Positions 5,713-41,266 of a DNA stretch of 41,642 bases are shown piece after piece. The DNA is from a virus. Lineage: Duplodnaviria > Heunggongvirae > Uroviricota > Caudoviricetes. The stretch's first letter is position 1, and every line of letters starts with the position of its first letter. The stretch is from the IMG/VR virus record IMGVR_UViG_2541047897_000010. One strand, 5' to 3'. The notes under the pieces were generated by a model that saw only the letters and a list, made by a program, of their open reading frames with translations, made no database searches and was not told where the DNA came from. Position numbers and translations under genes: made by a program.

Positions 5713-5723
5713 ATAAATATTGA

Positions 5724-6398: not shown

Positions 6399-6414
6399 AA
6401 CGAAATTAAAACCT

Positions 6415-6433: not shown

Positions 6434-6438
6434 GTATC

Positions 6439-6466
6439 TTGAAGGTTCATCTCAATCATGTAATAT
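6439..6466 (+). promoter_or_regulatory. Candidate PR-like promoter for cro
   Basis: -35 TTGAAG (6439-6444), 16-bp spacer, -10 TAATAT (6461-6466), about 23 nt before cro ATG. Confidence 0.35.
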
Positions 6467-6488
6467 GTATATCGGAGGTACATATTGT

Positions 6489-6689
6489 ATGAAAGCGTAT
6501 TGGGACTCTTTAACCAAAGAACAGCAGGGCGAGTTGGCCGGAAAAGTTGGCTCAACACCAGGCTACTTACGGCTGGTTTTCAATGGTTATAAAAAAGCCA
6601 GTTTTGTGCTGGCTAAAAAACTTGAGCAATGCACGTCAGGTGCAATTACGAAATCTGACTTAAGACCGGATATCTATCCGAAAGATTAA
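6489..6689 (+). CDS. cro: Cro/YdaS-like HTH regulator
   Basis: 66-aa ORF, GGAGG SD 9 nt upstream; C-terminal DLRPD motif recalled for YdaS/Cro-like family; divergent from cI. Confidence 0.6.
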   Translation: MKAYWDSLTKEQQGELAGKVGSTPGYLRLVFNGYKKASFVLAKKLEQCTSGAITKSDLRPDIYPKD

Positions 6690-6720
6690 CAGAACACCTT
6701 CAATTTTTAACCACAGAACG

Positions 6721-7284
6721 ATGAGGCTAACCGTGGGTAAGCATCACTGGAAAGTAGAAAAACAGCCTGAGTGGTACGTGAAAGCTGTCAGAAAAACTAT
6801 CGCGGCGTTGCCGGGGGGTTACGCTGAAGCTGCTGAGTGGCTGGATGTAACAGAGAACGCTTTATTCAACCGCCTTCGTGCAGATGGCGATCAGATTTTC
6901 CCGCTGGGATGGGCAATGATTTTACAGCGCGCGGCTGGCACTCACTACATTGCGGATGCTGTCGCACAGTCTGCTGGTGGGGTGTTTGTATCGCTTCCTG
7001 AAATTGAGGAAGTAGAGAACGCCGATATAAACCAGCGCCTGCTGGAAGTCATCGAACAGATCGGGAGTTACTCAAAGCAGATTCGTTCGGCAATCGAAGA
7101 TGGGGTAGTGGAGCCACACGAGCAGACAGCAATTAATGATGAGTTGTATCTGTCAATTTCGAAGCTCCAGGAGCATGCAGCACTGGTCTACAAAATCTTT
7201 TGCGCTCCAGAAAAGAGTGACGCCCGCGAGTGTGCAGCTCCGGGCGTCGTGGCGTTTTGTGTCTGTGGAGAAACTAACGCATGA
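6721..7284 (+). CDS. YdaT-like / CII-like regulatory protein (tentative)
   Basis: 187-aa ORF immediately after cro-like gene; family assignment from position and memory only. Confidence 0.4.
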   Translation: MRLTVGKHHWKVEKQPEWYVKAVRKTIAALPGGYAEAAEWLDVTENALFNRLRADGDQIFPLGWAMILQRAAGTHYIADAVAQSAGGVFVSLPEIEEVENADINQRLLEVIEQIGSYSKQIRSAIEDGVVEPHEQTAINDELYLSISKLQEHAALVYKIFCAPEKSDARECAAPGVVAFCVCGETNA

Positions 7285-8117
7285 ACAGTTTAACGGCAAA
7301 TAACCGTTTGTCGCAACAGCTGGTGGTCAGCGTCGCTGAACACCTGTTGTTACGGCATGAATGCAGATTACCAAATCACCTGGCTGTAAGTAACCACAGA
7401 GAACTTTACCTGACTGTGGGGGGCGAGTTGTGCAGGAACTTAACCGCTGGTTTCGTGACGGAAGAGGGCTTTATGTCCATGTTATTCGTTGGGAGCCAGA
7501 AACACAGCGCGTTATCTATCTTCGCAAAGACTACCCGCATGAGTGCTTTAGTCCTTTGTGGAAATTCAGGCGTGATTTTGTTGAGTGTGAAGGACCACCA
7601 GCACATTGATTCTGCCATTCCGGGACGTTACACTGTTCAGGCACCTTATAAAGCGGGTGACGGGATTGGCGTCCTGGAAATGTTATCGGCGATATATGAC
7701 GCGCCAGCGTCTTTTTTATCGTCTGTGTCTGTGCACACCCAAATTATGGTGGGCTGGACGGGGGCACCGAAAGGTGCGCCGGTTTCCGATAACGCCGGTT
7801 ACGCCAACCCCGTTCAGTTCACCACCAGCGAAATTGGCGTTTCCGGTGGTGAAGGTAATTCACTGTTATCGGAGGCTGCCATCATGGCTACTGTCCCAGC
7901 CCTCACTCGTCTGAATGATGAAGACTTACATAAACTCAGTTATGTAACAACTGCACTACGTGCTCTGCGCAAGGTAACTCTTTCGGATCCGCAGGCGCAT
8001 CAGGTTTTGGTAGAAACCCTTCTTAACTTGCAGGCTGAACGTATTCGTCTGGCGGATAAGGCTAATTTTCATATTCACCGTCTCCTGAATATCAGCGGAG
8101 GGCATCGTCATGCTTAA
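7281..8117 (+). CDS. Hypothetical early protein, no family recognised
   Basis: 278-aa ORF with ATGA stop/start overlap with upstream gene. Confidence 0.4.
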   Translation: MNSLTANNRLSQQLVVSVAEHLLLRHECRLPNHLAVSNHRELYLTVGGELCRNLTAGFVTEEGFMSMLFVGSQKHSALSIFAKTTRMSALVLCGNSGVILLSVKDHQHIDSAIPGRYTVQAPYKAGDGIGVLEMLSAIYDAPASFLSSVSVHTQIMVGWTGAPKGAPVSDNAGYANPVQFTTSEIGVSGGEGNSLLSEAAIMATVPALTRLNDEDLHKLSYVTTALRALRKVTLSDPQAHQVLVETLLNLQAERIRLADKANFHIHRLLNISGGHRHA

Positions 8118-8346
8118 TCCGTTGATCCTCAATATTTGCCGTTTGCTTCAGCGTAAAAAAACATCAATTCCTACAGTTGGGCAGTGGTACACCACGCCTG
8201 CAGGGCATGTTCTACGTGTTAGCCTGGTTGACCGTGAATGTCAGAAGGTGATTTGTGAACCGCTGGGCCGTAATTACCGCATCAGTATGCCGCTTATAGC
8301 CTTTTGCTCCGGAAAAAACATGAAGCATCTCGGAGGTGCAGCATGA
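8110..8346 (+). CDS. Hypothetical small protein
   Basis: 78-aa ORF overlapping previous stop; weak support. Confidence 0.3.
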   Translation: MLNPLILNICRLLQRKKTSIPTVGQWYTTPAGHVLRVSLVDRECQKVICEPLGRNYRISMPLIAFCSGKNMKHLGGAA

Positions 8347-9161
8347 GTATGGAGCTGATGGTTAAAGCGATGAAAATTCGAGTGGGTAATCCATTGCGAA
8401 AACTGGTTCTGATCAAGCTGGCTGATAATGCCAGCGATCAGGGTGAGTGCTGGCCCAGCTACCAGCATATTGCTGACCAGTGCGAGATTAGCAAACGTTC
8501 TGTGATGAATCATATTGCGGCCCTTTGTGATTCCGGGCTGGTAAAAAAAGTCACCCGGAAAGGTGAAAAAGGTAACTCAAGTAATATCTATCTCCTTCAT
8601 CTTGATGGTGCAGGAGATTCACTAGGGGGTAGTGCAAATAATTCACTATCTGGTGCAGCAAATTCACCAGGTAGTGCAGGAGTTGCACCAGGGGGTGGTG
8701 CAGGAGATTCACCCAGAACCAGTCACTCTTTTGAACCAGTCAAAGAACCAGTCAATGAACCAATAGCTGTTGGTGCATCAGTTGATGAGTCCGTGCGAGT
8801 TCGTTCAAACCGACCGGAATACTCTCCGGAGTTTGAGCAGGCATGGCTGGCATACCCCAAACGTGCTGGTGGCAATTCAAAATCTGCAGCCTTCAAAGCC
8901 TGGAAAGCCCGTTTGAATGAGGGGGTAAAACCCGAAACCATGCTGGAAGGTGTGAAACGCTACGCGGGCTGGGTATCTGCGATGGGTAACAGCGGCACAC
9001 AATTTGTGAAACAGGCTGTCACGTTCTTTGGTCCGGATCGTCATTTCGAAGAATCCTGGGAAGTTCCTGCGGTATCTGCAGCCAGACGCGAGGACCCGTA
9101 CTTCAAAGCCAGTTACGACAACGTGGACTACAGCCAGATCCCGGCAGGATTCAGGGGGTAA
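8343..9161 (+). CDS. Replication initiation protein with N-terminal HTH (O-like / HTH_36-type)
   Basis: ATG 8343 with GGAGG SD; N-terminal HTH-like region (LIKLADNASDQGECWPSYQHIADQCEISKRSVMNHIAAL); low-complexity central linker encoded by iteron-like repeats. Confidence 0.55.
   Translation: MSMELMVKAMKIRVGNPLRKLVLIKLADNASDQGECWPSYQHIADQCEISKRSVMNHIAALCDSGLVKKVTRKGEKGNSSNIYLLHLDGAGDSLGGSANNSLSGAANSPGSAGVAPGGGAGDSPRTSHSFEPVKEPVNEPIAVGASVDESVRVRSNRPEYSPEFEQAWLAYPKRAGGNSKSAAFKAWKARLNEGVKPETMLEGVKRYAGWVSAMGNSGTQFVKQAVTFFGPDRHFEESWEVPAVSAARREDPYFKASYDNVDYSQIPAGFRG
8607..8714. repeat. Five tandem 21-bp direct repeats (iteron-like, candidate ori)
   Basis: Repeats with core GTGCAG-A-ATTCAC at 8607, 8628, 8652, 8673, 8694 inside the O-like gene. 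Confidence 0.4.
8716..8766. repeat. 12-bp tandem repeats GAACCAGTCA (3-4 copies)
   Basis: GAACCAGTCA at 8716, 8733, 8745 and partial copy at 8757. Confidence 0.4.
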
Positions 9162-9163
9162 TC

Positions 9164-9652
9164 ATGAGTCTTTTGAATGAAGTTCAGAAATTCATTGAAG
9201 CCCATCCGGGGTGTACTTCCGGAGACATTGCAGATGCTTTTGCAGGTTACTCACGGCAGCGCGTTCTGCAGTCAGCAAGCAAGTTACGTCAGAGTGGGCG
9301 TGTGGCTCACCGTTGTGAAGGAGATACACGCAGACATTTCCCGCGCCTGACTGAGAGAGCGCAGGAGCCGGAACCACAACCAGTTCGTGAAACCAGACCT
9401 GTGCGCAATTTCTATGTCGGCACTAACGATCCCCGGGTAATTTTGTGCCTGACCCGCCAGGCTGAAGAACTGGAGTCCAGGGGCTTATACCGTCGTGCTG
9501 CAACGGTGTGGATGGCGGCATTCCGTGAAAGCCACTCCCAGCCAGAACGAAACAATTTTCTGGCGCGTCGTGAGCGGTGCTTACGGAAAAGCAGCAAGCG
9601 CGCTGTATCGGGTGAAGAGTGGTATCTGTCAGGGAATTACGTGGGGGCTTAA
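9164..9652 (+). CDS. PerC-like transcriptional regulator
   Basis: Motif AEELESRGLYRRAATVWMAAF matching the recalled PerC family signature. Confidence 0.45.
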   Translation: MSLLNEVQKFIEAHPGCTSGDIADAFAGYSRQRVLQSASKLRQSGRVAHRCEGDTRRHFPRLTERAQEPEPQPVRETRPVRNFYVGTNDPRVILCLTRQAEELESRGLYRRAATVWMAAFRESHSQPERNNFLARRERCLRKSSKRAVSGEEWYLSGNYVGA

Positions 9653-10305
9653 TGAGTAATAAATATTGCCAGGCGCTGGTGGAGCTGCGGAACAAACCAG
9701 CCCATGAACTGAAGGAAGTGGGCGATCAGTGGCGCACGCCGGATAACATTTTCTGGGGAATTAACACCCTGTTTGGCCCGTTTGTTCTGGATCTGTTCAC
9801 TGATGGTGATAACGCCAAATGTGCCGCTTATTACACTGCGGAAGACAACGCGCTGGCGCATGACTGGTCTGAACGTCTTGCGGAGCTTAAAGGTGCTGCC
9901 TTTGGTAATCCCCCGTACAGCCGCGCCAGTCAGCATGAAGGGCAATACATCACCGGCATGCGTTACATCATGAAGCATGCCAGTGCCATGCGTGATAAGG
10001 GCGGACGCTATGTTTTCCTGATCAAAGCTGCCACCAGCGAAGTGTGGTGGCCGGAAGATGCAGATCATATTGCTTTTATTCGCGGGCGTATTGGTTTTGA
10101 ACTGCCTGCCTGGTTTATCCCGAAGGACGAGAAGCAGGTGCCGACAGGCGCTTTCTTCGCTGGTGCTATTGCTGTTTTCGACAAGACCTGGAAGGGACCG
10201 GCAATCAGCTACATCGGGCGCGATGAACTTGAGGCATGTGGTGAGGCGTTTCTGGCGCAGGTTCGCCAGCAGGCAGAAAAACTGGTCAGGGAGATGGCGG
10301 CATGA
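9652..10305 (+). CDS. Phage DNA N6-adenine methyltransferase (Dam-type)
   Basis: NPPY catalytic motif (AFGNPPYS); TAATG overlap with upstream gene. Confidence 0.7.
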   Translation: MSNKYCQALVELRNKPAHELKEVGDQWRTPDNIFWGINTLFGPFVLDLFTDGDNAKCAAYYTAEDNALAHDWSERLAELKGAAFGNPPYSRASQHEGQYITGMRYIMKHASAMRDKGGRYVFLIKAATSEVWWPEDADHIAFIRGRIGFELPAWFIPKDEKQVPTGAFFAGAIAVFDKTWKGPAISYIGRDELEACGEAFLAQVRQQAEKLVREMAA

Positions 10306-10628
10306 CGACGTTAACTCAATGCCAGCAGCAGGTGCTGGATATGCTGATTTCTTATCAGAAAGAACGTGGCTTCCCGCCAACCAATCAGGAGGTGGCAACC
10401 ATGCTGGGATACCGTTCGGTGAATGCAGCGGTGGAGCATCTTCGCGCACTGGAGAAAAAAGGCGTCATCACGATAAAGCGTGGCGTGGCCCGGGGCATCA
10501 CGCTTCATACCGCGGTGAAGGACGACGGCAGCGAGGCGGTCGGGATTATCCGCGCACTGCTTGCCGGTGAGGAAAACGCCAGGCTGCGTGCAGCCCACTG
10601 GTTACATGAGAGGGGGCTGAAAGTATGA
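10302..10628 (+). CDS. LexA N-terminal DNA-binding-domain homologue lacking the S24 peptidase domain
   Basis: 108 aa; residues QQQVLDML...GFPPTNQEVA..LGYRSVNAAVEHLRALEKKGVI...RGITL align with the LexA winged-helix N-domain; no cleavage-site/Ser-Lys domain. Confidence 0.55.
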   Translation: MTTLTQCQQQVLDMLISYQKERGFPPTNQEVATMLGYRSVNAAVEHLRALEKKGVITIKRGVARGITLHTAVKDDGSEAVGIIRALLAGEENARLRAAHWLHERGLKV

Positions 10629-11014
10629 AGCTAATACTGCCTTTCCCGCCCAGCGTGAACACGTACTGGCGACACCCCAACAAAGGGGCGTTTGCTGGTA
10701 AGAGCCTGATAAGCGCGGCGGGGCGAAAATTCCAGAGCGCGGCGTGTGCAGCAATAGTTGAGCAGTTACGTCGTCTGCCAAAACCAACGTCGGCACCTGC
10801 TTCAGTGGAGATCGTGTTGTTTCCTCCGGATAACCGGATCCGCGATCTGGACAACTATAACAAGGCGCTGTTTGACGCCCTGACCCACGCGGGGGTGTGG
10901 GAAGACGACAGACAGGTGAAAAGAATGCTGGTGGAGTGGGGACCGGTTATCCCGAAAGGGAAGGTCGAGATCACTATCAGTAAGTACAAGAAAACGGCGG
11001 GTGCAGCCGCCTGA
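10625..11014 (+). CDS. rusA: RusA Holliday-junction resolvase
   Basis: 129 aa; N-terminal LPFPPSVNTYW and acidic catalytic region typical of RusA. Confidence 0.8.
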   Translation: MKLILPFPPSVNTYWRHPNKGAFAGKSLISAAGRKFQSAACAAIVEQLRRLPKPTSAPASVEIVLFPPDNRIRDLDNYNKALFDALTHAGVWEDDRQVKRMLVEWGPVIPKGKVEITISKYKKTAGAAA

Positions 11015-11033
11015 TTAAGAGGAGAAACGAAGT

Positions 11034-11843
11034 ATGAATAATCTGATGGTCATTGATGGTATTGAAGTTCGTCGTGATGCTTATGGTCGTTACAGCCTGA
11101 ACGATCTGCACAGGGCAGCCGGGGGAGAACAAAAAAACCGCCCGAAATACTGGCTCTCCAATAAGCAAACCTGTGAATTGATTGAACAACTTTTCACCGA
11201 GGGTGGAATTCCGCCTCTGGAACAAAATCAACCAGTTAGCGTCATTAATGGCGGAAATAACCAGGGGACGTATGTCTGCAAAGAACTGGTGTATGCCTAT
11301 GCAATGTGGATCAGCCCGTCATTCCATCTGAAGGTGATCCGTACTTTCGATATGGTAACCAGCGCACCGGAAAAATTATCCGGGCAGGCTGCTGACAAGA
11401 TGCAGGCTGGTGTGATTCTGCTGGACTTTATGCGTCGGGAATTAAACCTGTCTAACTCATCTGTGCTTGGGGCTTGTCAGAAACTCCAGGAGGCTGTTGG
11501 CTTACCGAATCTGGCTCCGCGCTATGCAATTGATGCTCCTGCCGATGCACCCGATGGCTCAAGTCGCCCTACGCTGTCACTGAGTGCACTGCTGAAGCAG
11601 TATGGTATCCGCCTGACGGCTAATCAGGCATATCACCAGATGGTGAAGCTGGGGATCGTCGAGCAGCGCGAACGATACAGCCGTACCGCGATTAACAACA
11701 TCAAAAAATTCTGGTCGCTGACAGCGAAAGGCTGCATGTTCGGCAAGAACATCACCAGTCCCGCAAATCCGCGCGAGACGCAGCCGCATTTCTTCGAATC
11801 CCGATTCCCTGAGCTGTTAAAGCTGCTCGATACCGTTCATTGA
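11034..11843 (+). CDS. KilA-N domain protein (possible antirepressor)
   Basis: AGGAG SD; N-terminal KilA-N-like region (YSLNDLHRAAGG...RPKYWL). Confidence 0.6.
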   Translation: MNNLMVIDGIEVRRDAYGRYSLNDLHRAAGGEQKNRPKYWLSNKQTCELIEQLFTEGGIPPLEQNQPVSVINGGNNQGTYVCKELVYAYAMWISPSFHLKVIRTFDMVTSAPEKLSGQAADKMQAGVILLDFMRRELNLSNSSVLGACQKLQEAVGLPNLAPRYAIDAPADAPDGSSRPTLSLSALLKQYGIRLTANQAYHQMVKLGIVEQRERYSRTAINNIKKFWSLTAKGCMFGKNITSPANPRETQPHFFESRFPELLKLLDTVH

Positions 11844-11844
11844 G

Positions 11845-12840
11845 GTGACCGTGAGAGCATTACTGACCCCTGAAATTGCCCCGCGTATGGGGATCGTATT
11901 GTTCAGACCCGGTTCAGAGCTGATGCCCCTGTTTATGCAGGGGCGTGTCCTGCTGGAGCCTGAGCCAGAACGTTATTCATCTTTTGCCAGTGGTGCCGTT
12001 CCGGCGGCATCACAACCGCTGGCGGATGATCCTGCTGTTCGGGCCGTGTTCCGCAATGAGGCAGTGATCCGTCGTGCTGGTGGCGTGGAATGTCTTGAAA
12101 GCTGGTTACTTCGTGAAAAAGGCTGCCAGTGGCCTCATTCCGACTGGCACAGCGAGAACATGACAACAATGCGACACGCTCCGGGCGCAATCCGTCTGTG
12201 CTGGCACTGCGATAACCAGCTGCGCGATCAGTTCACGGAACGGCTGGAATCAATGGCAACGGATAACTGTGCCCGCTGGGTGTTGTCTGTTGTGCGTCGG
12301 GATCTCGGTTTTGATGACAGTCACGTTGTGACAATGCCGGAACTGTGCTGGTGGCTGGTTCGTAATGATCTGGCGGATGCCTTACCGGAAAGCGCAGCCC
12401 GTAAGGCACTGAGATTACCGAATCCTGTTGTGCCGTCTGTCACCCGGGAAAGTGACCTTGTGCCTTCGGTTCCTGCCACCAGCATCATCCAGGATAAGGC
12501 GAAAAAGGTGCTGGCGCTGAAAGTGGATCCGGAGTCGCCGGAGTCTTTTATGTTACGCCCAAAACGTCGCCGCTGGGTTAATGAAAAGTACACGCGCTGG
12601 GTTAAGACACAGCCGTGCGCATGTTGTGGAAAGCCTGCTGATGATCCTCACCACCTGATAGGCCACGGTCAGGGGGGAATGGGTACAAAAGCGCATGACC
12701 TCTTTGTGTTGCCTTTGTGCAGAAAGCATCACGACGAGCTGCATGCGGATACCGTGGCATTTGAAGAGAAGTATGGCTCCCAGCTGGAGCTGATATTTCG
12801 TTTTATCGATCGTGCGCTGGCAATAGGCGTACTGGCGTAA
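11845..12840 (+). CDS. DUF968-domain protein (HNH-like Cys/His C-terminus)
   Basis: C-terminal CACCGKPADDPHHLIGHG...CRKHHDELH; start uncertain (GTG 11845 or 11851). Confidence 0.5.
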   Translation: MTVRALLTPEIAPRMGIVLFRPGSELMPLFMQGRVLLEPEPERYSSFASGAVPAASQPLADDPAVRAVFRNEAVIRRAGGVECLESWLLREKGCQWPHSDWHSENMTTMRHAPGAIRLCWHCDNQLRDQFTERLESMATDNCARWVLSVVRRDLGFDDSHVVTMPELCWWLVRNDLADALPESAARKALRLPNPVVPSVTRESDLVPSVPATSIIQDKAKKVLALKVDPESPESFMLRPKRRRWVNEKYTRWVKTQPCACCGKPADDPHHLIGHGQGGMGTKAHDLFVLPLCRKHHDELHADTVAFEEKYGSQLELIFRFIDRALAIGVLA

Positions 12841-12853
12841 GTGGAGAACGAGC

Positions 12854-13606
12854 ATGAACCTTGAAGCCTTACCAAAATATTACTCCCCAAAATCTCCAAA
12901 ACTGAGCGATGACGCACCGGCGACAGGCTCGGGTGGTTTAACGATTACGGATGTGATGGCTGCGCAGGGGATGGTGCAGTCGAAAGCACCGCTTGGGTTT
13001 GCCTTATTTCTGGCAAAAGTTGGTGTTCAGGATCCTCAGTTTGCGATTGAAGGTCTGCTCAATTACGCGATGGCACTGGATAACCCGACATTGAACAAAT
13101 TGAGTGAAGAAACCCGGTTACAGATCATCCCTTACCTTGTGAATTTTGCCTTTGCTGATTATTCCAGGTCTGCGGCAAGTAAGGCTCGCTGTGGGCATTG
13201 TGCTGGTACTGGATTTCATAATGTATTGCGCGAAGTGGTGAAACACTACAGACGCGGGGAATCTGTTATCAAGGAAGAGTGGGTGAAGGAACTATGTCAG
13301 CATTGCCATGGTAAGGGAGAAGTCAGCACAGCGTGCAGAGGGTGTAAGGGTAAAGGTATTGTCCTGGATGAAAAAAGGACCCGGCTTCATGGCACGCCTG
13401 TTTATAAGATTTGTGGGCGTTGCAATGGAAACCGGTTTAGCCGTTTACCAACCACACTGGCGCGGCATCATGTCCAGAAGCTGGTACCAGACCTGACGGA
13501 TTATCAGTGGTACAAAGGATATGCAGATGTCATTGATAAACTGGTGACAAAGTGCTGGCAGGAAGAAGCATATGCTGAGGCGCAATTAAGAAAAGTGACG
13601 AGATAA
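12854..13606 (+). CDS. Late-gene antiterminator Q-like protein
   Basis: Multiple CxxC/HxxC zinc-binding pairs (CGHCAGTG, CQHCHGKG, CRGCKGKG, CGRCNGN); position before lysis genes and PR'-like promoter/terminator. Confidence 0.6.
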   Translation: MNLEALPKYYSPKSPKLSDDAPATGSGGLTITDVMAAQGMVQSKAPLGFALFLAKVGVQDPQFAIEGLLNYAMALDNPTLNKLSEETRLQIIPYLVNFAFADYSRSAASKARCGHCAGTGFHNVLREVVKHYRRGESVIKEEWVKELCQHCHGKGEVSTACRGCKGKGIVLDEKRTRLHGTPVYKICGRCNGNRFSRLPTTLARHHVQKLVPDLTDYQWYKGYADVIDKLVTKCWQEEAYAEAQLRKVTR

Positions 13607-13638
13607 ATGATTTTCGCCGAAGATAGCGACATGATTCT

Positions 13639-13673
13639 TGCATTTTTCAAAAAATCTGGTTAGGATTCTCCTA
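13639..13673 (+). promoter_or_regulatory. Candidate late promoter (PR'-like)
   Basis: TTGCAT - 17 bp - TAGGAT about 45 nt upstream of the terminator hairpin. Confidence 0.25.
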
Positions 13674-13716
13674 ACGATGGGCTTTGTATGTCTGCCGTTA
13701 ACGAAATCATAACAAA

Positions 13717-13737
13717 CCTCGCTTCGGCGGGGTTTTT
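13717..13737 (+). terminator. tR'-like rho-independent terminator (target for Q antitermination)
   Basis: CCTCGC-TTCG-GCGGGG stem-loop followed by TTTTT. Confidence 0.5.
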
Positions 13738-13756
13738 GCTTTTCTGGAGGTCAATA

Positions 13757-14014
13757 ATGCAGGGCGAAAAGCAGCAGCCATATTTTTTTAATCCTGGTAT
13801 GACTGTTGAACAGCTTGAAGACTGGCTGGAGCAGCAAAAGCTTCATCTAAGCCGCTATAGCCGTCTGGTAAAAGAAAAAGCAGAGCTTGAAGAACGGCTC
13901 AGTGATATTTCTGTGGAAATTGAACGAATGTCTGCTGGTGGTTTTAACGGAAAGTTGAGTTTCCCTTGGGAGTCAAGTTCGCTTCTGAGAAATCATCAAC
14001 AGGGTAGTATTTGA
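13757..14014 (+). CDS. Hypothetical coiled-coil protein at start of late operon
   Basis: ATG 13757 with GGAGG SD (6-nt spacing); ORF track version from 13688 would cross the terminator. Confidence 0.4.
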   Translation: MQGEKQQPYFFNPGMTVEQLEDWLEQQKLHLSRYSRLVKEKAELEERLSDISVEIERMSAGGFNGKLSFPWESSSLLRNHQQGSI

Positions 14015-14093
14015 CTGAAATAATAAACAGACTGTCATTAAGATCCCTTCCCCTCATATCTGAGAGGACCAACAGCAATTAAGAGGGGGCTAA

Positions 14094-14480
14094 ATGTCCG
14101 ATCCGATTTCCGGTACTGGGCTGGCTGGTGGTGCCCTGACGGGTGCCAGTGTTTATGGACTGCTGACCGGAACTGATTACGGCGTTGTATTTGGCGCATT
14201 TGCAGGGGCTGTATTCTACATAGCAACAGCAGCAGATCTGAGTGCATCGCGCCGACTGGCATATTTTATTGTGTCATATATTGCCGGGATTCTTTGCTCT
14301 GGGTTGGTTGGCTCCAAGCTGGCGAACTTGACCGGATACAGTGATAAACCTCTGGATGCTATTGGTGCCGTAATCGTCTCTGCTTTAGCCGTTAAAATCC
14401 TGACGTTCCTGAATAATCAGGATATCGGCTCGCTGGTGGCGCTCATAACGCGCCGGGGAGGTTCAGGTGGAGCTAAATGA
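14094..14480 (+). CDS. Holin-like multi-pass membrane protein
   Basis: 128 aa, strong SD (AAGAGGGGG), Gly/Ala-rich hydrophobic segments, first gene of lysis cassette. Confidence 0.5.
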   Translation: MSDPISGTGLAGGALTGASVYGLLTGTDYGVVFGAFAGAVFYIATAADLSASRRLAYFIVSYIAGILCSGLVGSKLANLTGYSDKPLDAIGAVIVSALAVKILTFLNNQDIGSLVALITRRGGSGGAK

Positions 14481-14748
14481 CCCGACAGCAACTATAAATG
14501 CGCTGTTATGTGCTTGTGTTGTTATTACTCTGATGTTTTATCGTCGTGGTGATTCGCGGCATCGTCCTTGGGTTTCACGTTTAGCCTGGCTGATTACTGT
14601 TACATACAGTGCTGTTCCGTTGGCCTATCTCTGTGGGATTTATCCTCATTCCTCATGGCCCATTATCGTGGCGAACACTATTTTTCTTTCCGTGCTGGTG
14701 GCCGTCAGAGGCAACGTTGCACGTCTGGTTGATCATCTGAGGCACTAA
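14467..14748 (+). CDS. Second holin/antiholin-like small membrane protein (3 predicted TM)
   Basis: 93 aa, GTG start with GGGGAGG SD, overlaps previous gene, precedes endolysin. Confidence 0.45.
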   Translation: MELNDPTATINALLCACVVITLMFYRRGDSRHRPWVSRLAWLITVTYSAVPLAYLCGIYPHSSWPIIVANTIFLSVLVAVRGNVARLVDHLRH

Positions 14749-15362
14749 TGAACCAACAATTATTTCAAAAGGCGGCTGGTATTAGCGCCGGGCTGGCTGC
14801 GCGCTGGTTTCCGCACATTGATGCGGCGATGAAGGAATTCGGCATTACAGCACCAGCGGATCAGGCAATGTTTATCGCTCAGGTAGGCCATGAGTCGATG
14901 GGGTTTAGCGCCGTAGTTGAAAATTTTAACTACACACCATCTGCGCTGGTGGCGACGTTCGGAAAGAGGATCACACAGCAGCAGGCTGATGCCCTTGGCA
15001 GAACATCCGGACATGCAGCTCGTCAGGATGCTATTGCCAATCTGGTGTATAGCAACAGACTGGGTAACAAAGCACCAGGTGATGGCTGGAAATATCGTGG
15101 TAGAGGATTAATTCAAATCACTGGCCTCCATAATTATCGCATCTGTGGCGCGGCGCTGAAGTTAGATCTGGTGACTTCACCTGAACAACTGGAACAGGAA
15201 CTACAGGCTGCGCGCTCAGCTGCATGGTTCTACACCTCTAAAGGTTGCATGATCTACGGTGCCGATATTAACCGTGTTACGCGCATCATTAACGGCGGTT
15301 TGAACGGTATTGAGGATCGTAAGGTCCGATACAACAAGGCGCGGGCGGCGCTGCTGGTATGA
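14748..15362 (+). CDS. Endolysin, glycoside hydrolase family 19 (chitinase-like lysozyme)
   Basis: 204 aa with GH19-like motifs (FIAQVGHES, NYRICGAALKLDL, GRGLIQITG). Confidence 0.75.
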   Translation: MNQQLFQKAAGISAGLAARWFPHIDAAMKEFGITAPADQAMFIAQVGHESMGFSAVVENFNYTPSALVATFGKRITQQQADALGRTSGHAARQDAIANLVYSNRLGNKAPGDGWKYRGRGLIQITGLHNYRICGAALKLDLVTSPEQLEQELQAARSAAWFYTSKGCMIYGADINRVTRIINGGLNGIEDRKVRYNKARAALLV

Positions 15363-15751
15363 AGATGAGTTATTGGGCGCTCATTTTAACGTTTATTGCT
15401 TGTGTCGCTGGTGGTCTTGTCTGGTCAGCGAATCACTATCATGGAAAGTTTCTGGAGGAGCAGAAGCGTGCTGATGCTGCGGAACAGCGAGCTGATTCTA
15501 CTGAGGCTATCACCGCGAATGTTCTGCGTACTATGGCAATAACGAACATCATTCAGGAGGCGAATCAACATGCAAAACAGCAGATCGCACTGGAGTCACA
15601 GAGAACCCAGGAAGATATCAAAGTGGCTGTTGCGGATGATGATTGTGCTTCACGTCCTGTGCCTGCTGCCGCTGCTGACCGGTTGCGGAAGTACGCGAAC
15701 AGTTTACGTCCAGGTTCCGGTAGTTCCGTTACCAGCCAGCCTGACGGCTGA
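15359..15751 (+). CDS. i-spanin (Rz-like)
   Basis: N-terminal TM then coiled-coil; ATGA overlap with endolysin stop. Confidence 0.6.
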   Translation: MKMSYWALILTFIACVAGGLVWSANHYHGKFLEEQKRADAAEQRADSTEAITANVLRTMAITNIIQEANQHAKQQIALESQRTQEDIKVAVADDDCASRPVPAAAADRLRKYANSLRPGSGSSVTSQPDG

Positions 15752-15905
15752 AACCCCTCAGCCTGATTTACCTGATCATTTTACGTGGGGCTCGAGCTTA
15801 GATCTGAATGTCGCCTTGTTGTCTGCATTGGCGCAGTGTAATACCGATAAAGCTGACATCAGAAGGATTGAAGTTGAGCGTGGTCACATCATGCAAAAAA
15901 AATGA
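15636..15905 (+). CDS. o-spanin lipoprotein (Rz1-like), overlapping Rz in +1 frame
   Basis: Signal peptide with lipobox LLTGC; Pro-rich; partly embedded in Rz gene. Confidence 0.6.
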   Translation: MMIVLHVLCLLPLLTGCGSTRTVYVQVPVVPLPASLTAETPQPDLPDHFTWGSSLDLNVALLSALAQCNTDKADIRRIEVERGHIMQKK

Positions 15906-15997
15906 TGTTAACTTTGTTTTGTTCCTTGATTTGATATGTGATGGCCCAATAGATACAAAGCACCTGATTTTGGTGACTCTTTTAAAGGGCTTTACAC

Positions 15998-16318
15998 ATG
16001 AAAGATGGTATCTATTTTGTTGTTTTCAGAAGCAATCAACGTGATTTTGGTAATGGTACCGTAGTTGTCAAAAACAATGCAGTAAACGGCGGAGATTTTG
16101 GTTTTACGTATCAGGGAAAAATTGACGGTAGCCAACTTATTCTGCGCGTATCGCAGCATGATTTAAATGTCACCTCGGTTTTCCCTGGGGTAAAGAACTT
16201 TGAATTGAGTCTTTCTTTGCAGGAACGAGGACGTGATTACCTGTTAAATGGATCTGTGGTCGGAATGCCTCAGATGCAGATTTCAATTAGTGCAAAATAC
16301 ATTGGTGATCTGATTTAG
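15998..16318 (+). CDS. Moron-encoded hypothetical protein (predicted beta-rich, no signal peptide)
   Basis: 106-aa ORF in sharply AT-rich insert between lysis cassette and HNH/terminase, followed by its own terminator. Confidence 0.5.
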   Translation: MKDGIYFVVFRSNQRDFGNGTVVVKNNAVNGGDFGFTYQGKIDGSQLILRVSQHDLNVTSVFPGVKNFELSLSLQERGRDYLLNGSVVGMPQMQISISAKYIGDLI

Positions 16319-16338
16319 TTTATCGAGATGATAATTGA

Positions 16339-16359
16339 ACCGCCTCCGGGCGGTTTTTT
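16339..16359 (+). terminator. Rho-independent terminator of moron
   Basis: ACCGCC-TCCG-GGCGGT stem-loop followed by TTTTTT. Confidence 0.55.
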
Positions 16360-16410
16360 ATTGCCATTTCTATGGTCTGTTCCATCGTAATAACTTAAAG
16401 GGAAGCATTA

Positions 16411-16761
16411 ATGCCGCCACGAACCCCGAAAGCCTGCCGTGTTCGCGGCTGCCGCCATACCACTACTGACCCTTCAGGCTACTGCGAAAGCCACAAAAGC
16501 GAAGGCTGGAAGCAATACAAACCTGGACAATCCCGTCATCAGCGCGGCTACGGTTCGAAGTGGGACAGTATCCGCGCGCGTGTTCTGAAGCGTGACAAAG
16601 GTCTGTGTCAGTTATGTCTGCGTGCTGGTGTGGTGCGTGAGGCGAAAACTGTTGACCACATCATCCCTAAAGCGCATGGCGGCACTGATGCTGACAGTAA
16701 TCTGCAGAGTCTGTGCTGGCCGTGTCATAAGGCGAAGACGGCCCGTGAACGGTTAAAGTGA
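16411..16761 (+). CDS. HNH endonuclease (terminase-associated)
   Basis: Cys pairs CRVRGC / CQLC and HNH core (VDHIIPKAHGG...CWPCH). Confidence 0.75.
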   Translation: MPPRTPKACRVRGCRHTTTDPSGYCESHKSEGWKQYKPGQSRHQRGYGSKWDSIRARVLKRDKGLCQLCLRAGVVREAKTVDHIIPKAHGGTDADSNLQSLCWPCHKAKTARERLK

Positions 16762-36505: not shown

Positions 36506-37077
36506 TATTTAGCCCTCACCAGAAAGTTAAATGCAATATTTCGTGGACGGGTTTCTGTACCTACATGTCCACTAATTTCACCATAACGTTTAACACTACG
36601 AGAGCTAAGAGCTCGTAGTGAGGAAGGCACCTTAAGACCGGGTTCGTCCGTTTTAACTATTCCCCCGTCACCATATGTAGCCAGTATTCCTGGGTTTACT
36701 CCTTCCCGTGCACTTCCTGCAGCAAGCCCGTCCCCCGTCCACAATTCCATATTGTGTGCATGATCCATAATTGTGTGTGATTGCCCTGAAAGTAGGGTAC
36801 GTCCGACATCAATCCCGCGCCCATCATCCCAGATACGAATGAAATCACCCCGTGCGTCAGGTAATGCTAGCGCCGGAAACACTTTCGCCAGCACAGGGTA
36901 ATCAGTGGCAGAGAATTTCGCGCCGTTGAACTTCAAAAACACCATACTGGACCAACTGTCGATTACAGTATTTGGCATTGCGGCGGACGGCCAGAAGAAC
37001 GGAACGCCAATAGCTGGAGCACCTTCTCCCAAACCAACGTTTAAGAAAATGCAGAGATTATGGCTAACTGGCATCAT
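36505..37077 (-). CDS. Alternative tail-fibre C-terminal coding segment (promoterless; fused to constant N-terminus after inversion)
   Basis: Reverse ORF whose N-terminal codons (..NVGLGEG..) are encoded by the right crossover site, mirroring ENLGLGT at the left site. Confidence 0.5.
   Translation of the reverse strand: MMPVSHNLCIFLNVGLGEGAPAIGVPFFWPSAAMPNTVIDSWSSMVFLKFNGAKFSATDYPVLAKVFPALALPDARGDFIRIWDDGRGIDVGRTLLSGQSHTIMDHAHNMELWTGDGLAAGSAREGVNPGILATYGDGGIVKTDEPGLKVPSSLRALSSRSVKRYGEISGHVGTETRPRNIAFNFLVRAK
37024..37049. repeat. Right inversion crossover site (gix/hix-like)
   Basis: TTCTCCCAAACCAACGTTTAAGAAAA, reverse complement of left site with identical core CCCAAACCAA-G-TTT. Confidence 0.55.
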
Positions 37078-37104
37078 CCCCGGTTTTTACTCAGGGGAAT
37101 GCTC

Positions 37105-37662
37105 ATGCTTATTGGCTATGTCCGCGTATCAACAAATGACCAGAATACGGAATTGCAGCGTAATGCGCTGGAGTGTGCAGGATGTGAGCTGATTTTTGAA
37201 GATAAGATCAGCGGCACTAAGTCCGACCGACCGGGACTGAAAAAACTGCTCAGAACATTATCAGCAGGTGACACTCTGGTAGTCTGGAAACTGGACCGAC
37301 TGGGGCGCAGTATGCGGCATCTTGTCGTGCTGGTGGAGGAGTTGCGCGAACGTGGCGTTAATTTTCGCAGCCTGACGGATGCTATTGATACCAGCACACC
37401 AATGGGGCGCTTTTTCTTTCATGTGATGGGTGCCCTGGCTGAAATGGAGCGAGAGCTTATTGTCGAACGTACTAGGGCGGGCTTTGCCGCAGCACGACAA
37501 GAAGGGAGGAATGGTGGGCGAAAGCCAAAGCTGACAGTAGAACAATGGGAGCAGGCTGGCAGGTTGATTGAATCGGGAATATATCAGCAGCAAGTCGCAC
37601 TGATTTATGATCTGGGTATTTCAACGGTGTATAAAAAATTCCCTGTAGCAAGTAAACCATAA
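37105..37662 (+). CDS. pin: Serine DNA invertase (Gin/Pin/Hin family)
   Basis: N-terminus MLIGYVRVSTNDQNT...; near-collinear with recalled Gin/Pin sequences; C-terminal HTH. Confidence 0.85.
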   Translation: MLIGYVRVSTNDQNTELQRNALECAGCELIFEDKISGTKSDRPGLKKLLRTLSAGDTLVVWKLDRLGRSMRHLVVLVEELRERGVNFRSLTDAIDTSTPMGRFFFHVMGALAEMERELIVERTRAGFAAARQEGRNGGRKPKLTVEQWEQAGRLIESGIYQQQVALIYDLGISTVYKKFPVASKP

Positions 37663-37688
37663 CCTTACGCCACATTGATGATCGCGGA

Positions 37689-38384
37689 TTATGCACTATT
37701 TTTAGGTCTTGTAACCCGAGGTGGGAGTTGTTTGGTTATATGTTCAAGTGATTTTTTGCCCAAGATAGTTCTTTGGACAAAACTTTCTATAGCTTCTAGC
37801 ATTTGTTCGAACTCACTTTTATTCGGGCTCCAACTGCGATGTGCGGCGGCGTTTCCTGCATCAATTACAGAAGATATAACGCATGCCTCAGTGTCGCCTA
37901 TGACTCCATCTTGTTTTAATTTTTCAACTTTTTCACCAAGCGGCAAACCGGGGTGAATTTGTAACAGTTCAGCAGTTCGATCAAAAATCGTCCGTAAACC
38001 GATGGACGAAAGGATGAAATGGTCAGAAGTATATGAAGAATACATTTCATTAAATATTTGAAAGAGCTGACGATCAACTGATTCAAGCTTGGATAACCAT
38101 ATCGGAGCTTGAAATGTTTCAGCGGCAGGATAGGTAGTGATCATATCTATAGGCGTTTCTACAAATTCACCATCACGATATTCGTGGGTAGTATGCTCAC
38201 TGAAGTGTTCGTTGTGGTGATAGAAGACAGTATCACAGCCATTGCATTGGAGTAGGTGATGGTAATGGTACCCATAAACTGGATATTGGGAATCCTCCCA
38301 GCTAGTGGTTAGCTTCCCATGCACAGTGCAGTTACGTAACCCACCGCATGTAGGGCAAAGAGCCTTGAGTATTTCCTTTTTCAT
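37689..38384 (-). CDS. Zinc-ribbon + DUF4145-like protein; candidate phage-defence/exclusion gene
   Basis: 231 aa in AT-rich island between invertase and dinI/int; N-terminal CPTC...CNGC; C-terminal helical domain with IDAGNAAAH motif recalled for DUF4145. Confidence 0.5.
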   Translation of the reverse strand: MKKEILKALCPTCGGLRNCTVHGKLTTSWEDSQYPVYGYHYHHLLQCNGCDTVFYHHNEHFSEHTTHEYRDGEFVETPIDMITTYPAAETFQAPIWLSKLESVDRQLFQIFNEMYSSYTSDHFILSSIGLRTIFDRTAELLQIHPGLPLGEKVEKLKQDGVIGDTEACVISSVIDAGNAAAHRSWSPNKSEFEQMLEAIESFVQRTILGKKSLEHITKQLPPRVTRPKNSA

Positions 38385-38732
38385 AAAGTCTCTGATTCTA
38401 TATGTAGGTTAAGACCACTATTAGCTATACGGACCTAATAATCAATCGTGTGCAGATACAAAAAAGCCCGTATAGCGGGATTTCATGTCACTAAGGGCCG
38501 CGGCTACTTTGCGTATCTTTTTTGTCTTCTCACCGTCTGGCCGGTATTTTGCTGAGACTGCTTATTTCCAGTTTTTACTAGTGCTGTACTGGTACTGCCC
38601 AATCATGATTGGTGGGGGACGGAGTTGAAACCGCAGCCACGTCGTATGCAAGAACGCGCTGCGGTTGGCTGGTGAACTTTCGATAGTGCGAGTATTGAAT
38701 GATTTCCAGCCGTTACAGATTTTACGTGTTTA

Positions 38733-38981
38733 TTAGTGAACAAACCACTCGTCAGCAGATTCCCAGGTATCTTTCAGAGTCTCCTGAACAAAAGTTTTTG
38801 CAGAATCCTTATCTGCGGTGCGTGTAACAGAAAGGCCATCATTGCTGGTGGCTTTTACTAACACCTCAACATCGTCATAACGCTTACTGATGCGTCGGGT
38901 TAATTCTTCCTTTAACGCATCCACAGCACCGGTTGGCATTTTAGTCATTTTTTCTTTGGCTATGCAGATTTCAATACGCAT
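38733..38981 (-). CDS. dinI: DinI-like SOS-regulated protein
   Basis: 82 aa; MRIEI...[12 protein letters not shown] closely parallels DinI; tandem LexA boxes immediately upstream. Confidence 0.75.
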
Positions 38982-38994: not shown

Positions 38995-39014
38995 TACTGT
39001 GTTTGTATACAGTA
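38995..39014. promoter_or_regulatory. LexA (SOS) box 1
   Basis: TACTGTGTTTGTATACAGTA, perfect CTGT-N8-ACAG. Confidence 0.65.
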
Positions 39015-39022
39015 TTATTTTT

Positions 39023-39042
39023 AACTGTATGGATAAACAGTG
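39023..39042. promoter_or_regulatory. LexA (SOS) box 2
   Basis: AACTGTATGGATAAACAGTG, CTGT-N8-ACAG; 9 bp from box 1. Confidence 0.6.
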
Positions 39043-40140
39043 TCAAGAGGTCTTATTTCTGCTCCTTTGGAGCTCTTCAAAACGATTATGTAAAGATTTC
39101 GGATACAGTTCGGTATATACCTGCCATAGCACGTTTAATGAACGATGCCCTGTAACCTGGGCGACTTCCTCAATACTAAAACCAGCCTCAAATAAGCGAC
39201 TTGCCCCTTCTCTACGCAAATCATGGTATCGCAGATCCTTAATACCTAATTTGCTTCTTACTCTCTGAAATCCCGCAGTAACAGAAGTGCTGTTATATGG
39301 AAAAATGAATTCCGATTTTTGGGGCTGTCGTTGGACGATATCCCAGGCTTCCCCAAGCAAGGCTACTTTCATGTGGTTGCCTTCCTTTTTGCGTGGATCT
39401 TTCCTGTCTCTTACGAGTATAGATTTTTGTTCCTGGTCGAGATCTTCCCATCGTAACCGGCATACTTCTCCGATTCGCATACAGGACCATACAGAAAATT
39501 TGAGGATATCAACGAACGGAATTTTTGAGCATTTATGAGTAGATCGTTGTTGAAGGCCTGCAATGAGCATGTCCAGTTCATCAGATGCTGGTCTACGATT
39601 ACGACGGTTTGATTTACCAATCAAACCAAGTTTAAGTAGATATGGGCGAGCGCTTTTCGCCGGGTTTGATGTGTAATTAATTCCGTATACAGGTTTGGCC
39701 GCATCCAGAACACTGCCAAGATAACTAACATCGTGGCTGACTGTTGCAGGACCTGCACCAGCGTTGTTTCTTAGCCTGCAATGTTCAATTACGTCATTTT
39801 CTGTCAGTTCAGATAGTTTGATCGCGGAGATGTCACTATCCATAAGCAGTTCCAGCACATATCTTTTAGTACGGCCTGCTTTACCTCCGGCATTTGGGTC
39901 ATTTAAATATTTGTGTAGTAAGTCACGGACTGTAAGTCCGTCAACTGCATTTGATGATGGAATGCCATATAGATCTAATTCCATCACTTTCTGTGTGCCC
40001 CATGTTTTGGCATGAGCATGTTTAGGGAATGTTTTGCTTTCCCTGTAAGTGATAACACCTTTTTCTTTGATAATCACATTACAGCGATAGCGTGGTGTGC
40101 CATCGGATTTTAGTCGTTTCTCTATGTTATAGTACGCCAT
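39043..40140 (-). CDS. int: Tyrosine integrase, dusA-associated type
   Basis: 365 aa with catalytic R...HDLRR...GHRSL...Y residues; divergent from and adjacent to dusA. Confidence 0.85.
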   Translation of the reverse strand: MAYYNIEKRLKSDGTPRYRCNVIIKEKGVITYRESKTFPKHAHAKTWGTQKVMELDLYGIPSSNAVDGLTVRDLLHKYLNDPNAGGKAGRTKRYVLELLMDSDISAIKLSELTENDVIEHCRLRNNAGAGPATVSHDVSYLGSVLDAAKPVYGINYTSNPAKSARPYLLKLGLIGKSNRRNRRPASDELDMLIAGLQQRSTHKCSKIPFVDILKFSVWSCMRIGEVCRLRWEDLDQEQKSILVRDRKDPRKKEGNHMKVALLGEAWDIVQRQPQKSEFIFPYNSTSVTAGFQRVRSKLGIKDLRYHDLRREGASRLFEAGFSIEEVAQVTGHRSLNVLWQVYTELYPKSLHNRFEELQRSRNKTS

Positions 40141-40228: not shown

Positions 40229-41266
40229 ATGCACGATAATCATGAAACAAAAAAAATTAATCAAACCAGCGTGATGCCTGAAAAAACTGGTGTTTACTGG
40301 AATTCTCGGTTTAGCATTGCTCCTATGCTCGACTGGACGGACAGACATTGCCGTTATTTCCTGCGTCTGCTTTCCCGCAATACGTTGCTGTATACCGAAA
40401 TGGTGACCACAGGGGCGATTATTCACGGTAAAGGTGATTACCTGGCGTACAGTGAAGAAGAACATCCGGTAGCGTTGCAACTCGGGGGTAGCGATCCGGC
40501 GGCGCTGGCACAGTGTGCGAAGCTGGCAGAAGCGCGTGGATACGATGAGATCAACCTGAATGTCGGCTGCCCGTCTGACCGGGTGCAGAACGGCATGTTT
40601 GGTGCGTGTCTGATGGGTAATGCGCAGCTGGTTGCCGACTGCGTGAAAGCGATGCGCGATGTGGTGTCGATTCCGGTGACGGTGAAGACGCGTATTGGCA
40701 TCGATGATCAGGACAGCTATGAATTTCTCTGCGATTTCATCAACACCGTTTCCGGCAAAGGTGAGTGTGAGATGTTCATCATCCACGCACGTAAAGCCTG
40801 GCTTTCTGGGTTAAGTCCGAAAGAAAACCGTGAGATCCCGCCGCTCGATTATCCGCGTGTGTATCAACTGAAGCGTGACTTTCCGCATCTGACGATGTCG
40901 ATTAACGGTGGTATCAAGTCGCTGGAAGAAGCTAAAGCGCATTTGCAACATATGGATGGCGTGATGGTCGGGCGCGAGGCGTATCAGAATCCGGGTATTC
41001 TGGCGGCGGTAGACCGAGAGATTTTTGGTTCCTCGGATATTGATGCCGATCCGGTGGCGGTAGTGCGCGCCATGTATCCGTACATTGAGCGTGAACTCAG
41101 CCAGGGTACGTATCTCGGCCATATTACCCGGCATATGCTGGGCTTGTTCCAGGGTATTCCTGGCGCGCGGCAGTGGCGGCGTTATTTAAGTGAAAATGCC
41201 CATAAAGCGGGTGCAGACATTAATGTGCTGGAACACGCGCTCAAACTGGTGGCGGATAAGCGTTAA
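40229..41266 (+). CDS. dusA: tRNA-dihydrouridine synthase A
   Basis: 345-aa ORF with Dus TIM-barrel motifs ([21 protein letters not shown]); alternative start at 40274 (MPEKT) possible; 5' end may be phage-supplied. Confidence 0.85.

Follow-up and report, generated by a model that had tools for sequence, protein, structure and literature searches.

The 41,642-nucleotide (nt) window analyzed here (IMG/VR record IMGVR_UViG_2541047897_000010; Duplodnaviria; Heunggongvirae; Uroviricota; Caudoviricetes) contains a temperate myovirus of about 36 kb, seemingly intact, that is integrated at the host dusA gene. Near its integrase, on the minus strand at 37689-38384, this Escherichia coli prophage carries a gene for a 231-amino-acid (aa) protein that joins an N-terminal zinc ribbon to a C-terminal DUF4145/HEPN-fold domain. 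By analogy with the anti-phage protein RAZR, this is a probable abortive-infection-type defense gene. We put the probability that it provides anti-phage (or anti-mobile-element) defense through an activated HEPN nuclease at about 0.6. An earlier note on this DNA had proposed a candidate anti-phage or exclusion gene. That proposal gained from a Pfam match, the HEPN fold, remote homology to RAZR, polymorphism of the insertion slot, and the mobile or defensive settings of relatives; its claims of a novel architecture and of upstream hairpins were lost.

The C-terminal region belongs to DUF4145, as the earlier note had proposed. A Pfam profile search aligned residues 115-199 with positions 4-87 of the 88-position PF13643 profile, scoring 39.0 bits where the gathering threshold is 23.1 (E=8.8e-10). 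In an AlphaFold2 model (mean predicted local distance difference test score 83), residues 5-85 fold into an all-beta N-terminal domain and residues 97-219 into a helical bundle, with a short linker between them. The bundle has the four-helix up-down HEPN fold, and Foldseek identified the HEPN toxins of MNT-HEPN toxin-antitoxin systems as the closest solved structures. On the minus strand, these parts correspond to an all-beta zinc-ribbon domain of aa 1-85 (38130-38384), which is a putative sensor; a linker of aa 86-96 (38097-38129) with near-invariant P86, P94, and W96, which aligns in hhalign with the RAZR-family linker 'P.PN.DMP'; and the HEPN-fold (DUF4145) domain of aa 97-211 (37752-38096), which is a putative RNase effector.

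We counted conservation across 121 diverse relatives that are 25-69% identical to the protein. The predicted four-cysteine zinc ribbon consists of two CxxC knuckles that are kept in 120-121 of these relatives. The first, C10-P-T-C13 (38346-38357, minus strand), retains each Cys in 120/121 and aligns with the CPxC of the RAZR family. The second, C47-N-G-C50 (38235-38246, minus strand), retains C47 in 121/121 and C50 in 120/121 and aligns with the second CxxC of that family. The second HEPN helix carries the motif R131-T-I-F-D135-R136 (37977-37994, minus strand), in which R131 is universal and residue 135 is Asp in 116 relatives and Glu in five. An active-site-like motif, I174-D-A-G-N-A-A-A-H182-R183-S-W185-S-P187, lies at 37824-37865 (minus strand). 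H182 and W185 are present in all 121 relatives and R183 in 117, while A176, G177, A179-A181, R183, and W185 are each kept in at least 110. The fixed site of the family thus comprises R131, D135, H182, R183, and W185, with the motif H-R-G-W-x-P, and the His-centered part is under strong purifying selection. Retention of the four Cys together with R131, H182, and W185 across such divergent relatives is not due to chance, and the invariance of H182 and its neighbors argues for a live active site. Mean identity to the query is lower in the N-terminal domain (31%, with lower information content) than in the HEPN domain (37%). This gap is modest and has a parallel in RAZR, where the N-terminal domain is also the less conserved of the two (PMC13017515).

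The stretch IDAGNAAAH had been read as a DUF4145 signature. It does carry the G-N-x-A-x-H core of DUF4145 and RAZR proteins, but the canonical preceding Arg, eight residues before the His (H-8), is missing. Position 174 is T in 41 relatives, V in 40, I in 33, A in six, and L in one, and Arg in none. The HEPN motif Rx4-6H (R-x7-H in DUF4145/RAZR) is absent, with no Arg from H-4 to H-8; an Arg at H-7 occurs in 1/121 relatives.

The earlier note knew of no characterized system with this exact architecture, but RAZR has it. PD-T7-4 came from a functional screen in Escherichia coli, where it was listed as 'Zn finger-HEPN' (Vassallo et al. 2022, PMC9519451), and was renamed RAZR (ring-activated zinc-finger RNase; E. 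coli UMB1727; Zhang et al. 2026, PMC13017515). It joins a Cys4 zinc finger at the N-terminus to a DUF4145/HEPN RNase at the C-terminus (PMC13017515). The zinc-finger domain, which is of the TFIIS/RPB9 zinc-ribbon type, senses and binds phage portal or Erf-like rings. RAZR assembles into a 24-mer ring, cleaves single-stranded RNA nonspecifically, and brings about abortive infection (PMC13017515). Residues R146 and H154 are essential, the R146A substitution abolishes defense, and RAZR overproduced without its trigger is non-toxic (PMC13017515).

A second validated E. coli zinc finger-HEPN (ZnF-HEPN) anti-phage protein, DS-38, was reported with DefensePredictor (bioRxiv 10.1101/2025.01.08.631726). 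Its HEPN domain superposes on that of PD-T7-4, whereas its zinc finger does not. It was called novel there since it falls outside the DefenseFinder and PADLOC profiles, and it was anti-phage from its native promoter (bioRxiv 10.1101/2025.01.08.631726). In a comparison by description, all of its descriptors fit our protein; DS-38 may be the very same protein, belong to the same family, or represent a third ZnF-HEPN family. Fusions of zinc ribbons to DUF4145, and their associations with phages and restriction-modification (R-M) systems, had been catalogued in 2013 (Anantharaman et al., PMC3710099). ZnF-HEPN immunity is therefore already known and mechanistically dissected, and the present system is not a new kind. 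What its sequence presents as new is a family that is distinct, large, and missed by defense-annotation profiles, whose active-site motif is rebuilt and whose sensor domain is both larger and different.

We compared this family with a RAZR control. The control was AGF87590.1 from Streptococcus phage phi891591 and its relatives, standing in for E. coli RAZR (RRL46918.1) and reached through weak tblastn bridges. AGF87590.1 is a full-length PD-T7-4 member (PADLOC E=5.4e-67). Its search returned 513 matches, from which a 33-sequence alignment was made, and all 33 sequences were PD-T7-4-positive in PADLOC (best 2.7e-94). They share the signature D-x-V-R-V-I-G-N-N-A-V-H-P-G, with an invariant Arg and an invariant His. 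The two lie eight residues apart, so the control reproduces the R146/H154 spacing reported for RAZR. The AGF87590.1 gene (KC348602.1, 2959-3678) lies between the lysogeny regulators and the integrase of phi891591 and is annotated 'hypothetical protein'. RAZR homologs are therefore carried by temperate phages of Gram-positive bacteria. A PemK-like toxin gene lies near it.

The same PADLOC model (PDLC04109) gave no match to the 231-aa protein at E<=1 and matched 0/121 relatives at E<=0.01. Marginal matches came only from three divergent relatives (E 4e-4 to 9e-3). BLASTP between our protein and the phi891591 protein was non-significant (E=0.28), and a word-indexed search with a broad profile recovered the same family only and no RAZR. 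The RAZR structures 9Y9C and 9Y6U were not among the structure matches, being either too dissimilar or absent from the databases searched. An hhalign comparison of the two family profiles, in contrast, aligned 197 collinear columns (probability 93.5%, E=2.3e-7; 17% identity). The alignment spans the first CxxC, the second knuckle, the Pro-rich linker, the HEPN core, and the C-terminal tail. H182 falls on the catalytic His of the RAZR family, R131 on another invariant Arg (R136), I174 on the catalytic Arg (invariant in 33/33), and R183 on an invariant Pro. Separate multiple alignments with proteins that have the RAZR-type Arg, one from a Sinorhizobium plasmid and one from an Enterobacter kobei phage-plasmid, where it is the product of the second DUF4145 gene, gave the same register.

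These comparisons indicate that the 231-aa protein is not a member of the RAZR family but a remote, collinear sister, related at the superfamily rather than the family level. Both are single proteins of about 220-240 aa with a Cys4 zinc ribbon (two CxxC), a Pro-rich linker, and a C-terminal DUF4145/HEPN domain. Both have the G-N-x-A-x-H core, an invariant second-helix Arg (R131 here), and the catalytic His, and both are borne beside integrases and on mobile elements. They differ at H-8, which is R146 in RAZR and non-Arg here, and at H+1, which is Pro in RAZR and Arg here. Identity is only about 17%, BLASTP is non-significant, and the PD-T7-4 model matches 33/33 members of one family and 0/121 of the other. 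Both clades occur on the E. kobei phage-plasmid NZ_CP156932.1, 5 kb apart (1571-2260 and 6938-7699). One gene belongs to the present family, and the other has the RAZR-type Arg and a weak PD-T7-4 match (E=2e-5). The accessory region of this element also contains RelE/Phd, UmuDC, and SRAP genes.

Other DUF4145 or HEPN immune proteins are less alike. BxaP (PMC10799925) and Ishtar1 (bioRxiv 10.64898/2026.07.06.735840) also rely on a DUF4145 HEPN domain for immunity to phages or plasmids, but that domain is N-terminal, is followed by unrelated C-terminal domains, and is not accompanied by a zinc ribbon. MNT-HEPN (HepT), the C-terminal HEPN of AbiA, AbiV, Csm6/Csx1, and RnlA/LsoA differ in that our gene has no MNT antitoxin or CARF or other sensor partner. 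Its sensor would instead be the fused zinc ribbon, and Rx4-6H, which marks MNT-HEPN and the other HEPN defense RNases, is missing.

By analogy with RAZR, we infer that the gene acts as a stand-alone prophage 'moron' encoding a single-protein sensor-effector. The Cys4 zinc-ribbon beta-domain would recognize a protein of a superinfecting phage, and recognition would switch on the HEPN (DUF4145) domain. As with other HEPN RNases, activation would most likely involve assembly into dimers or larger oligomers. The activated domain would cleave cellular and phage RNA, translation would stop, and the infection would be aborted. Abortive infection would shield the lysogen population, and hence the prophage. 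R183 (H+1), R131, or both would substitute for the Arg at H-8; because R146A abolishes RAZR defense and the H-8 Arg is missing here, the family must use R183 and/or R131, or work otherwise. A specific ring assembly like that of RAZR is much less probable for this protein than defense through an activated HEPN nuclease. We tentatively suggest, as a possibility that falls short of an even chance, that these proteins form a large overlooked sister family of RAZR (at least 287 clusters at 50% identity), with the present protein as its founding example. In such a family the HEPN Arg would have moved from H-8 to H+1, or R131 would supply it (an 'H-R-G-W' site), and the enlarged zinc ribbon would sense a different phage or plasmid trigger.

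The gene forms a lineage-specific, single-gene cargo cassette of about 0.8 kb. Homology to phages SKA5, mEp460, and Lys8385Vzw breaks at 38624-38631, and partial homology with 15 E. coli genomes that lack the gene reaches 38461. The limits of homology in gene-less phages and genomes therefore define 37663-38460 as the lineage-specific part. The cassette is monocistronic, with 76 nt upstream of the gene and 26 nt between its 3' end and the convergent invertase. Phage SKA5 has the identical baseplate-fiber-invertase/dinI-int-dusA' order with only 143 nt in place of the cassette, which is missing from this collinear phage and from mEp460. The dinI-int module was found in 722/5,426 complete E. coli genomes. 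The cassette is present in 34 of those 722, always at least 99.4% identical and always in the same context. We found no diverged E. coli paralogs of the gene at the DNA level.

The same position can hold other genes. In E. coli AH02 (NZ_CP081701.1, 742-3418), the slot contains a type II R-M system, both genes of which are frameshifted, and a GIY-YIG gene, followed by int and dusA. Phage Lys8385Vzw (2358-3071) has an NleG effector gene beside dinI, with int following. FDAARGOS_944 (1386-3137) has a gene for an IpaH type III secretion system (T3SS) effector beside dinI, with a different dinI allele and next to yecD/aspS rather than dusA. The earlier note had described the locus as an integrase-proximal slot for defense cargo. 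The presence/absence polymorphism and the R-M system of AH02 agree with this, but the T3SS effectors found elsewhere indicate that the slot is not defense-specific. The junction beside dinI is a hotspot of moron exchange that can carry defense genes without being restricted to them. The invertase beside the cassette is frameshifted in E. coli 720632 and 47-1826 (locus positions 3110-5974), and 720632 also has a truncated phage tail protein gene, while the DUF4145 protein is identical in both; this hints that the cargo is retained in decaying prophages. The 55.6-kb record pSX12-2 of E. coli SX12 (NZ_CP142787.1), annotated as a plasmid, carries the prophage end alongside dusA, pspG, qorA, dnaB, and alr. 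We considered an excised or plasmid form of the prophage and rejected it in view of dusA, dnaB, and alr; the record is probably a mis-assigned or duplicated chromosomal segment.

The wider family is large and widely distributed. At E<=1e-3, an exhaustive profile search recovered 2,693 clusters (50% identity), of which 287 also passed E<=1e-30; nearly all aligned over both domains. At least 136 species-representative genomes from Gamma-, Beta-, and Alphaproteobacteria, Acidobacteriota, Bacteroidota, and Chloroflexota encode the exact H-R motif, as do 47 IMG/VR contigs. Citrobacter relatives lie at prophage ends beside int, umuD-like, dinI, and gtr genes. One Enterobacter protein, together with 130 nt of upstream sequence, is found at the att-proximal end of P2-like, lambda-like, and P22-like prophages. 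A Pantoea relative sits between int and primase in a P4-like satellite, and a Cedecea relative on a mobilizable island. In Sphingomonadales, a block of at least 9 kb (locus positions ~7000-16675) is 97.5-99.97% identical across about eleven taxa and shared by ten of the twelve records compared, from several genera that include Aurantiacibacter, Novosphingobium, Qipengyuania, and Citromicrobium. Its near edge lies 150-990 bp upstream of the gene of this family. With the conjugative-transfer gene TraF upstream and EmrAB-TolC-like efflux genes downstream, the block looks like a recently spreading integrative and conjugative element (ICE).

Family members are also present on 69 plasmids, including Yersinia pestis pMT1, and 51 Yersinia plasmids have a copy. 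The member on pMT-1/pFra of Y. pestis KIM10+ (NC_004838.1, locus 6001-6723) is WP_002224263.1, which is 41% identical. Its gene lies just past phage tail-fiber genes, flanked by IS100 and IS256, about 5 kb from the ymt phospholipase D gene. Relatives in defense islands neighbor Gabija-like, RT/PRTase, Lit, SIR2, IetAS-like, AAA_13, and PLD genes. The inspected contexts are overwhelmingly mobile or defensive. The accessory placement that had been proposed extends to the homologs, which occupy prophage ends, a satellite, a mobilizable island, an ICE, plasmids, and defense islands.

We looked upstream of the gene for signs of expression from the lysogen. The cassette supplies a 76-nt 5' region of its own (38385-38460, minus strand) with a weak promoter-like pair, TTGATT-17-AATAGT (8/12, identified by eye), and a weak AGAGA Shine-Dalgarno sequence. 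The claim of a hairpin-rich upstream region failed: the 246 nt upstream fold like shuffled sequence (z = 0.16; 120/200 shuffles fold as well), and 9-nt inverted repeats occur there at chance level. A structured 5' leader, riboswitch, or small RNA was considered and rejected on the same fold score and the absence of any Rfam family. The sole notable element, found by sequence and scan, is one terminator-like hairpin at 38458-38479 (minus strand), cccgCTATAcggg followed by the T-run cttttttgt. Because the region 38461-38623 is also present, at about 91%, in 15 E. coli genomes without the DUF4145 gene, we assign this hairpin to the 3' flank of dinI. It lies outside the cassette proper and probably ends dinI transcripts. 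Upstream of the dinI-like gene (38733-38981, minus strand; Pfam DinI) lie a LexA box that is nearly perfect, TACTGTATACAAACACAGTA at ~38995-39014 (minus strand), and a TTGACA-type promoter-like site from a promoter scan at 39017-39046 (minus strand), so dinI is probably SOS-induced. Direct SOS control of the DUF4145 gene was rejected, since its upstream region has no LexA box and the box belongs to dinI. Read-through from dinI past the weak terminator at 38458-38479 could, however, make the DUF4145 gene partly SOS-responsive.

Several observations weigh against a role in defense through an activated nuclease. The column of the essential R146 of RAZR is I174 here and Arg in 0/121 relatives, and with no Arg at H-8 the HEPN domain could be catalytically different or inactive. 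Neither the protein nor any of its 121 relatives matched a PADLOC model, and tblastn found no homolog in 50,697 sequenced phage genomes. The slot admits non-defense cargo (the NleG and IpaH effectors), and one relative lies beside a housekeeping gyrB/parE-like gene, a neutral context. The promoter scan found no consensus sigma-70 promoter directly upstream, the 76 cassette nt included, so expression from the lysogen can only be inferred.

The missing Arg bears most directly on the alternative that the HEPN domain is catalytically dead. The zinc-ribbon protein would then bind nucleic acid or protein, in superinfection exclusion or in regulation of prophage or host RNA, without cleaving RNA. Arg at H-8 is lacking throughout the family, while R146A alone abolishes defense by RAZR. 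About 20% of DUF4145 members have no Rx4-6H, and some HEPN families keep the His without the Arg (PMC3710099), so our protein belongs to a minority that exists within DUF4145 (PF13643). The structural neighbors include non-catalytic HEPN folds (MtlR, sacsin, and the C-terminal domains of KNTase). The full-length match to phrog_1305 (E=5e-43) brings the PHROG label 'DNA binding protein', which we set aside as an unverified annotation that the zinc ribbon probably prompted. Against a dead domain, the invariance of H182 and the retention of its flanks in at least 110/121 relatives, at 25-69% identity, are typical of an active rather than a degenerate site, and the G-N-x-A-x-H core is held in common with RAZR. 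In addition, a near-invariant Arg stands at H+1, where RAZR has an invariant Pro, which suggests relocation rather than loss. We consider a dead HEPN domain unlikely.

The similarity to MNT-HEPN toxins raises a further alternative, in which the protein is an addiction or stabilization toxin, or a stress-activated RNase, that benefits the mobile element through post-segregational killing rather than defense. Members of the family reside on prophages, plasmids, an ICE, and a satellite, and toxin-antitoxin genes lie near some loci: RelE/Phd on the E. kobei phage-plasmid, PemK on the Cedecea mobilizable island, and PIN in a defense island. However, the monocistronic cassette has no cognate antitoxin gene, no MNT partner was present in the 14 loci inspected, and RAZR is non-toxic when overproduced without its trigger. 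Addiction is accordingly quite improbable.

The protein could also serve the phage itself, either as a decoy against RAZR-type immunity of the host or as an RNase for its own lytic cycle. Its gene is carried by a phage and it is homologous to a host immune protein, RAZR needs homo-oligomerization that a defective homolog could poison, and the two clades lie 5 kb apart on one phage-plasmid. At 17% identity, however, co-assembly with RAZR is unlikely, and many relatives are found in non-phage defense islands, an ICE, and plasmids. The gene runs in the same direction as the lysogeny genes dinI and int and against that of the late operon, and it is dispensable in the viable relatives SKA5 and mEp460. 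We regard a counter-defense or phage-benefit role as very unlikely. Equally improbable is a system whose targets are not phages but other mobile elements, for example conjugative plasmids: Ishtar1/2, with an N-terminal DUF4145/DUF3644 HEPN domain, block RP4 conjugation (bioRxiv 10.64898/2026.07.06.735840), and relatives of our protein occur on plasmids and an ICE, but the domain order of Ishtar is reversed, its C-terminal domain is different, and the full-length collinear homology of our protein is to RAZR, an anti-phage protein.

The predicted defense gene is a complete open reading frame (ORF) of 231 aa plus stop, supported by the ORF list, Pfam, phrog_1305, and RefSeq, which names its product 'DUF4145 domain-containing protein' (WP_001514810.1). 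Its limits, 37689-38384 on the minus strand, are exactly those of the earlier note, as are its strand, opposite to the late genes, and its place, with an invertase on one side and dinI/int on the other. The AT-rich island is also real, with a G+C content of 0.41 over the gene and 0.55-0.61 in the late genes. The left neighbor, convergent with the gene, encodes a Hin/Gin-type tail-fiber DNA invertase (37060-37662, plus strand; Pfam Resolvase, 174 bits, and HTH_7). Beyond dinI, the right end of the prophage is marked by a dusA-specific tyrosine integrase gene (39043-40140, minus strand; Pfam Phage_integrase and RefSeq contexts). Host dusA, the integration target, follows at 40229-41266 (plus strand), as identified from the RefSeq annotation of identical contexts. 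The rest of the prophage encodes a repressor, a Q-like antiterminator, a lysis cassette, terminase, portal, an HK97 capsid, sheath and tube, and a Mu-like baseplate.

Other features lie elsewhere in the window. At the zur-proximal prophage end, a gene for a SocA/Panacea-domain antitoxin-like protein (1-474, plus strand; Pfam E=6e-18) is cut by the start of the window and is followed by a 182-aa ORF (496-1044, plus strand) without a Pfam match. The two are a probable PanA-type toxin-antitoxin pair and thus a second candidate defense or addiction cargo of the same prophage. In the early region, the isrK Hfq-binding RNA (7641-7717, plus strand; Rfam, 55 bits) is directly followed by the C4 antisense RNA (7742-7829, plus strand; 83 bits), a pairing that points to a P1/P7-type antisense-controlled module.

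The analysis documents that R-M systems, T3SS effectors, and the DUF4145 gene replace one another at the invertase-dinI junction. If the gene is defensive, it represents a widespread single-gene immune module, carried by prophages, satellites, ICEs, and plasmids in many phyla, that PADLOC-type annotation has missed, and this would include the copy on the Y. pestis virulence plasmid pMT1. The two families also provide a natural experiment in HEPN catalysis, since they are collinear and have the G-N-x-A-x-H core in common but place the essential Arg differently. Comparing these placements could reveal how RAZR-type RNases are positioned and switched on, and the enlarged, divergent zinc-ribbon domain could expose a new phage trigger. 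Should the sister-family interpretation prove true, ZnF-HEPN immunity would gain an active-site configuration and a trigger specificity that are both new, in a family that escapes current defense-annotation tools.

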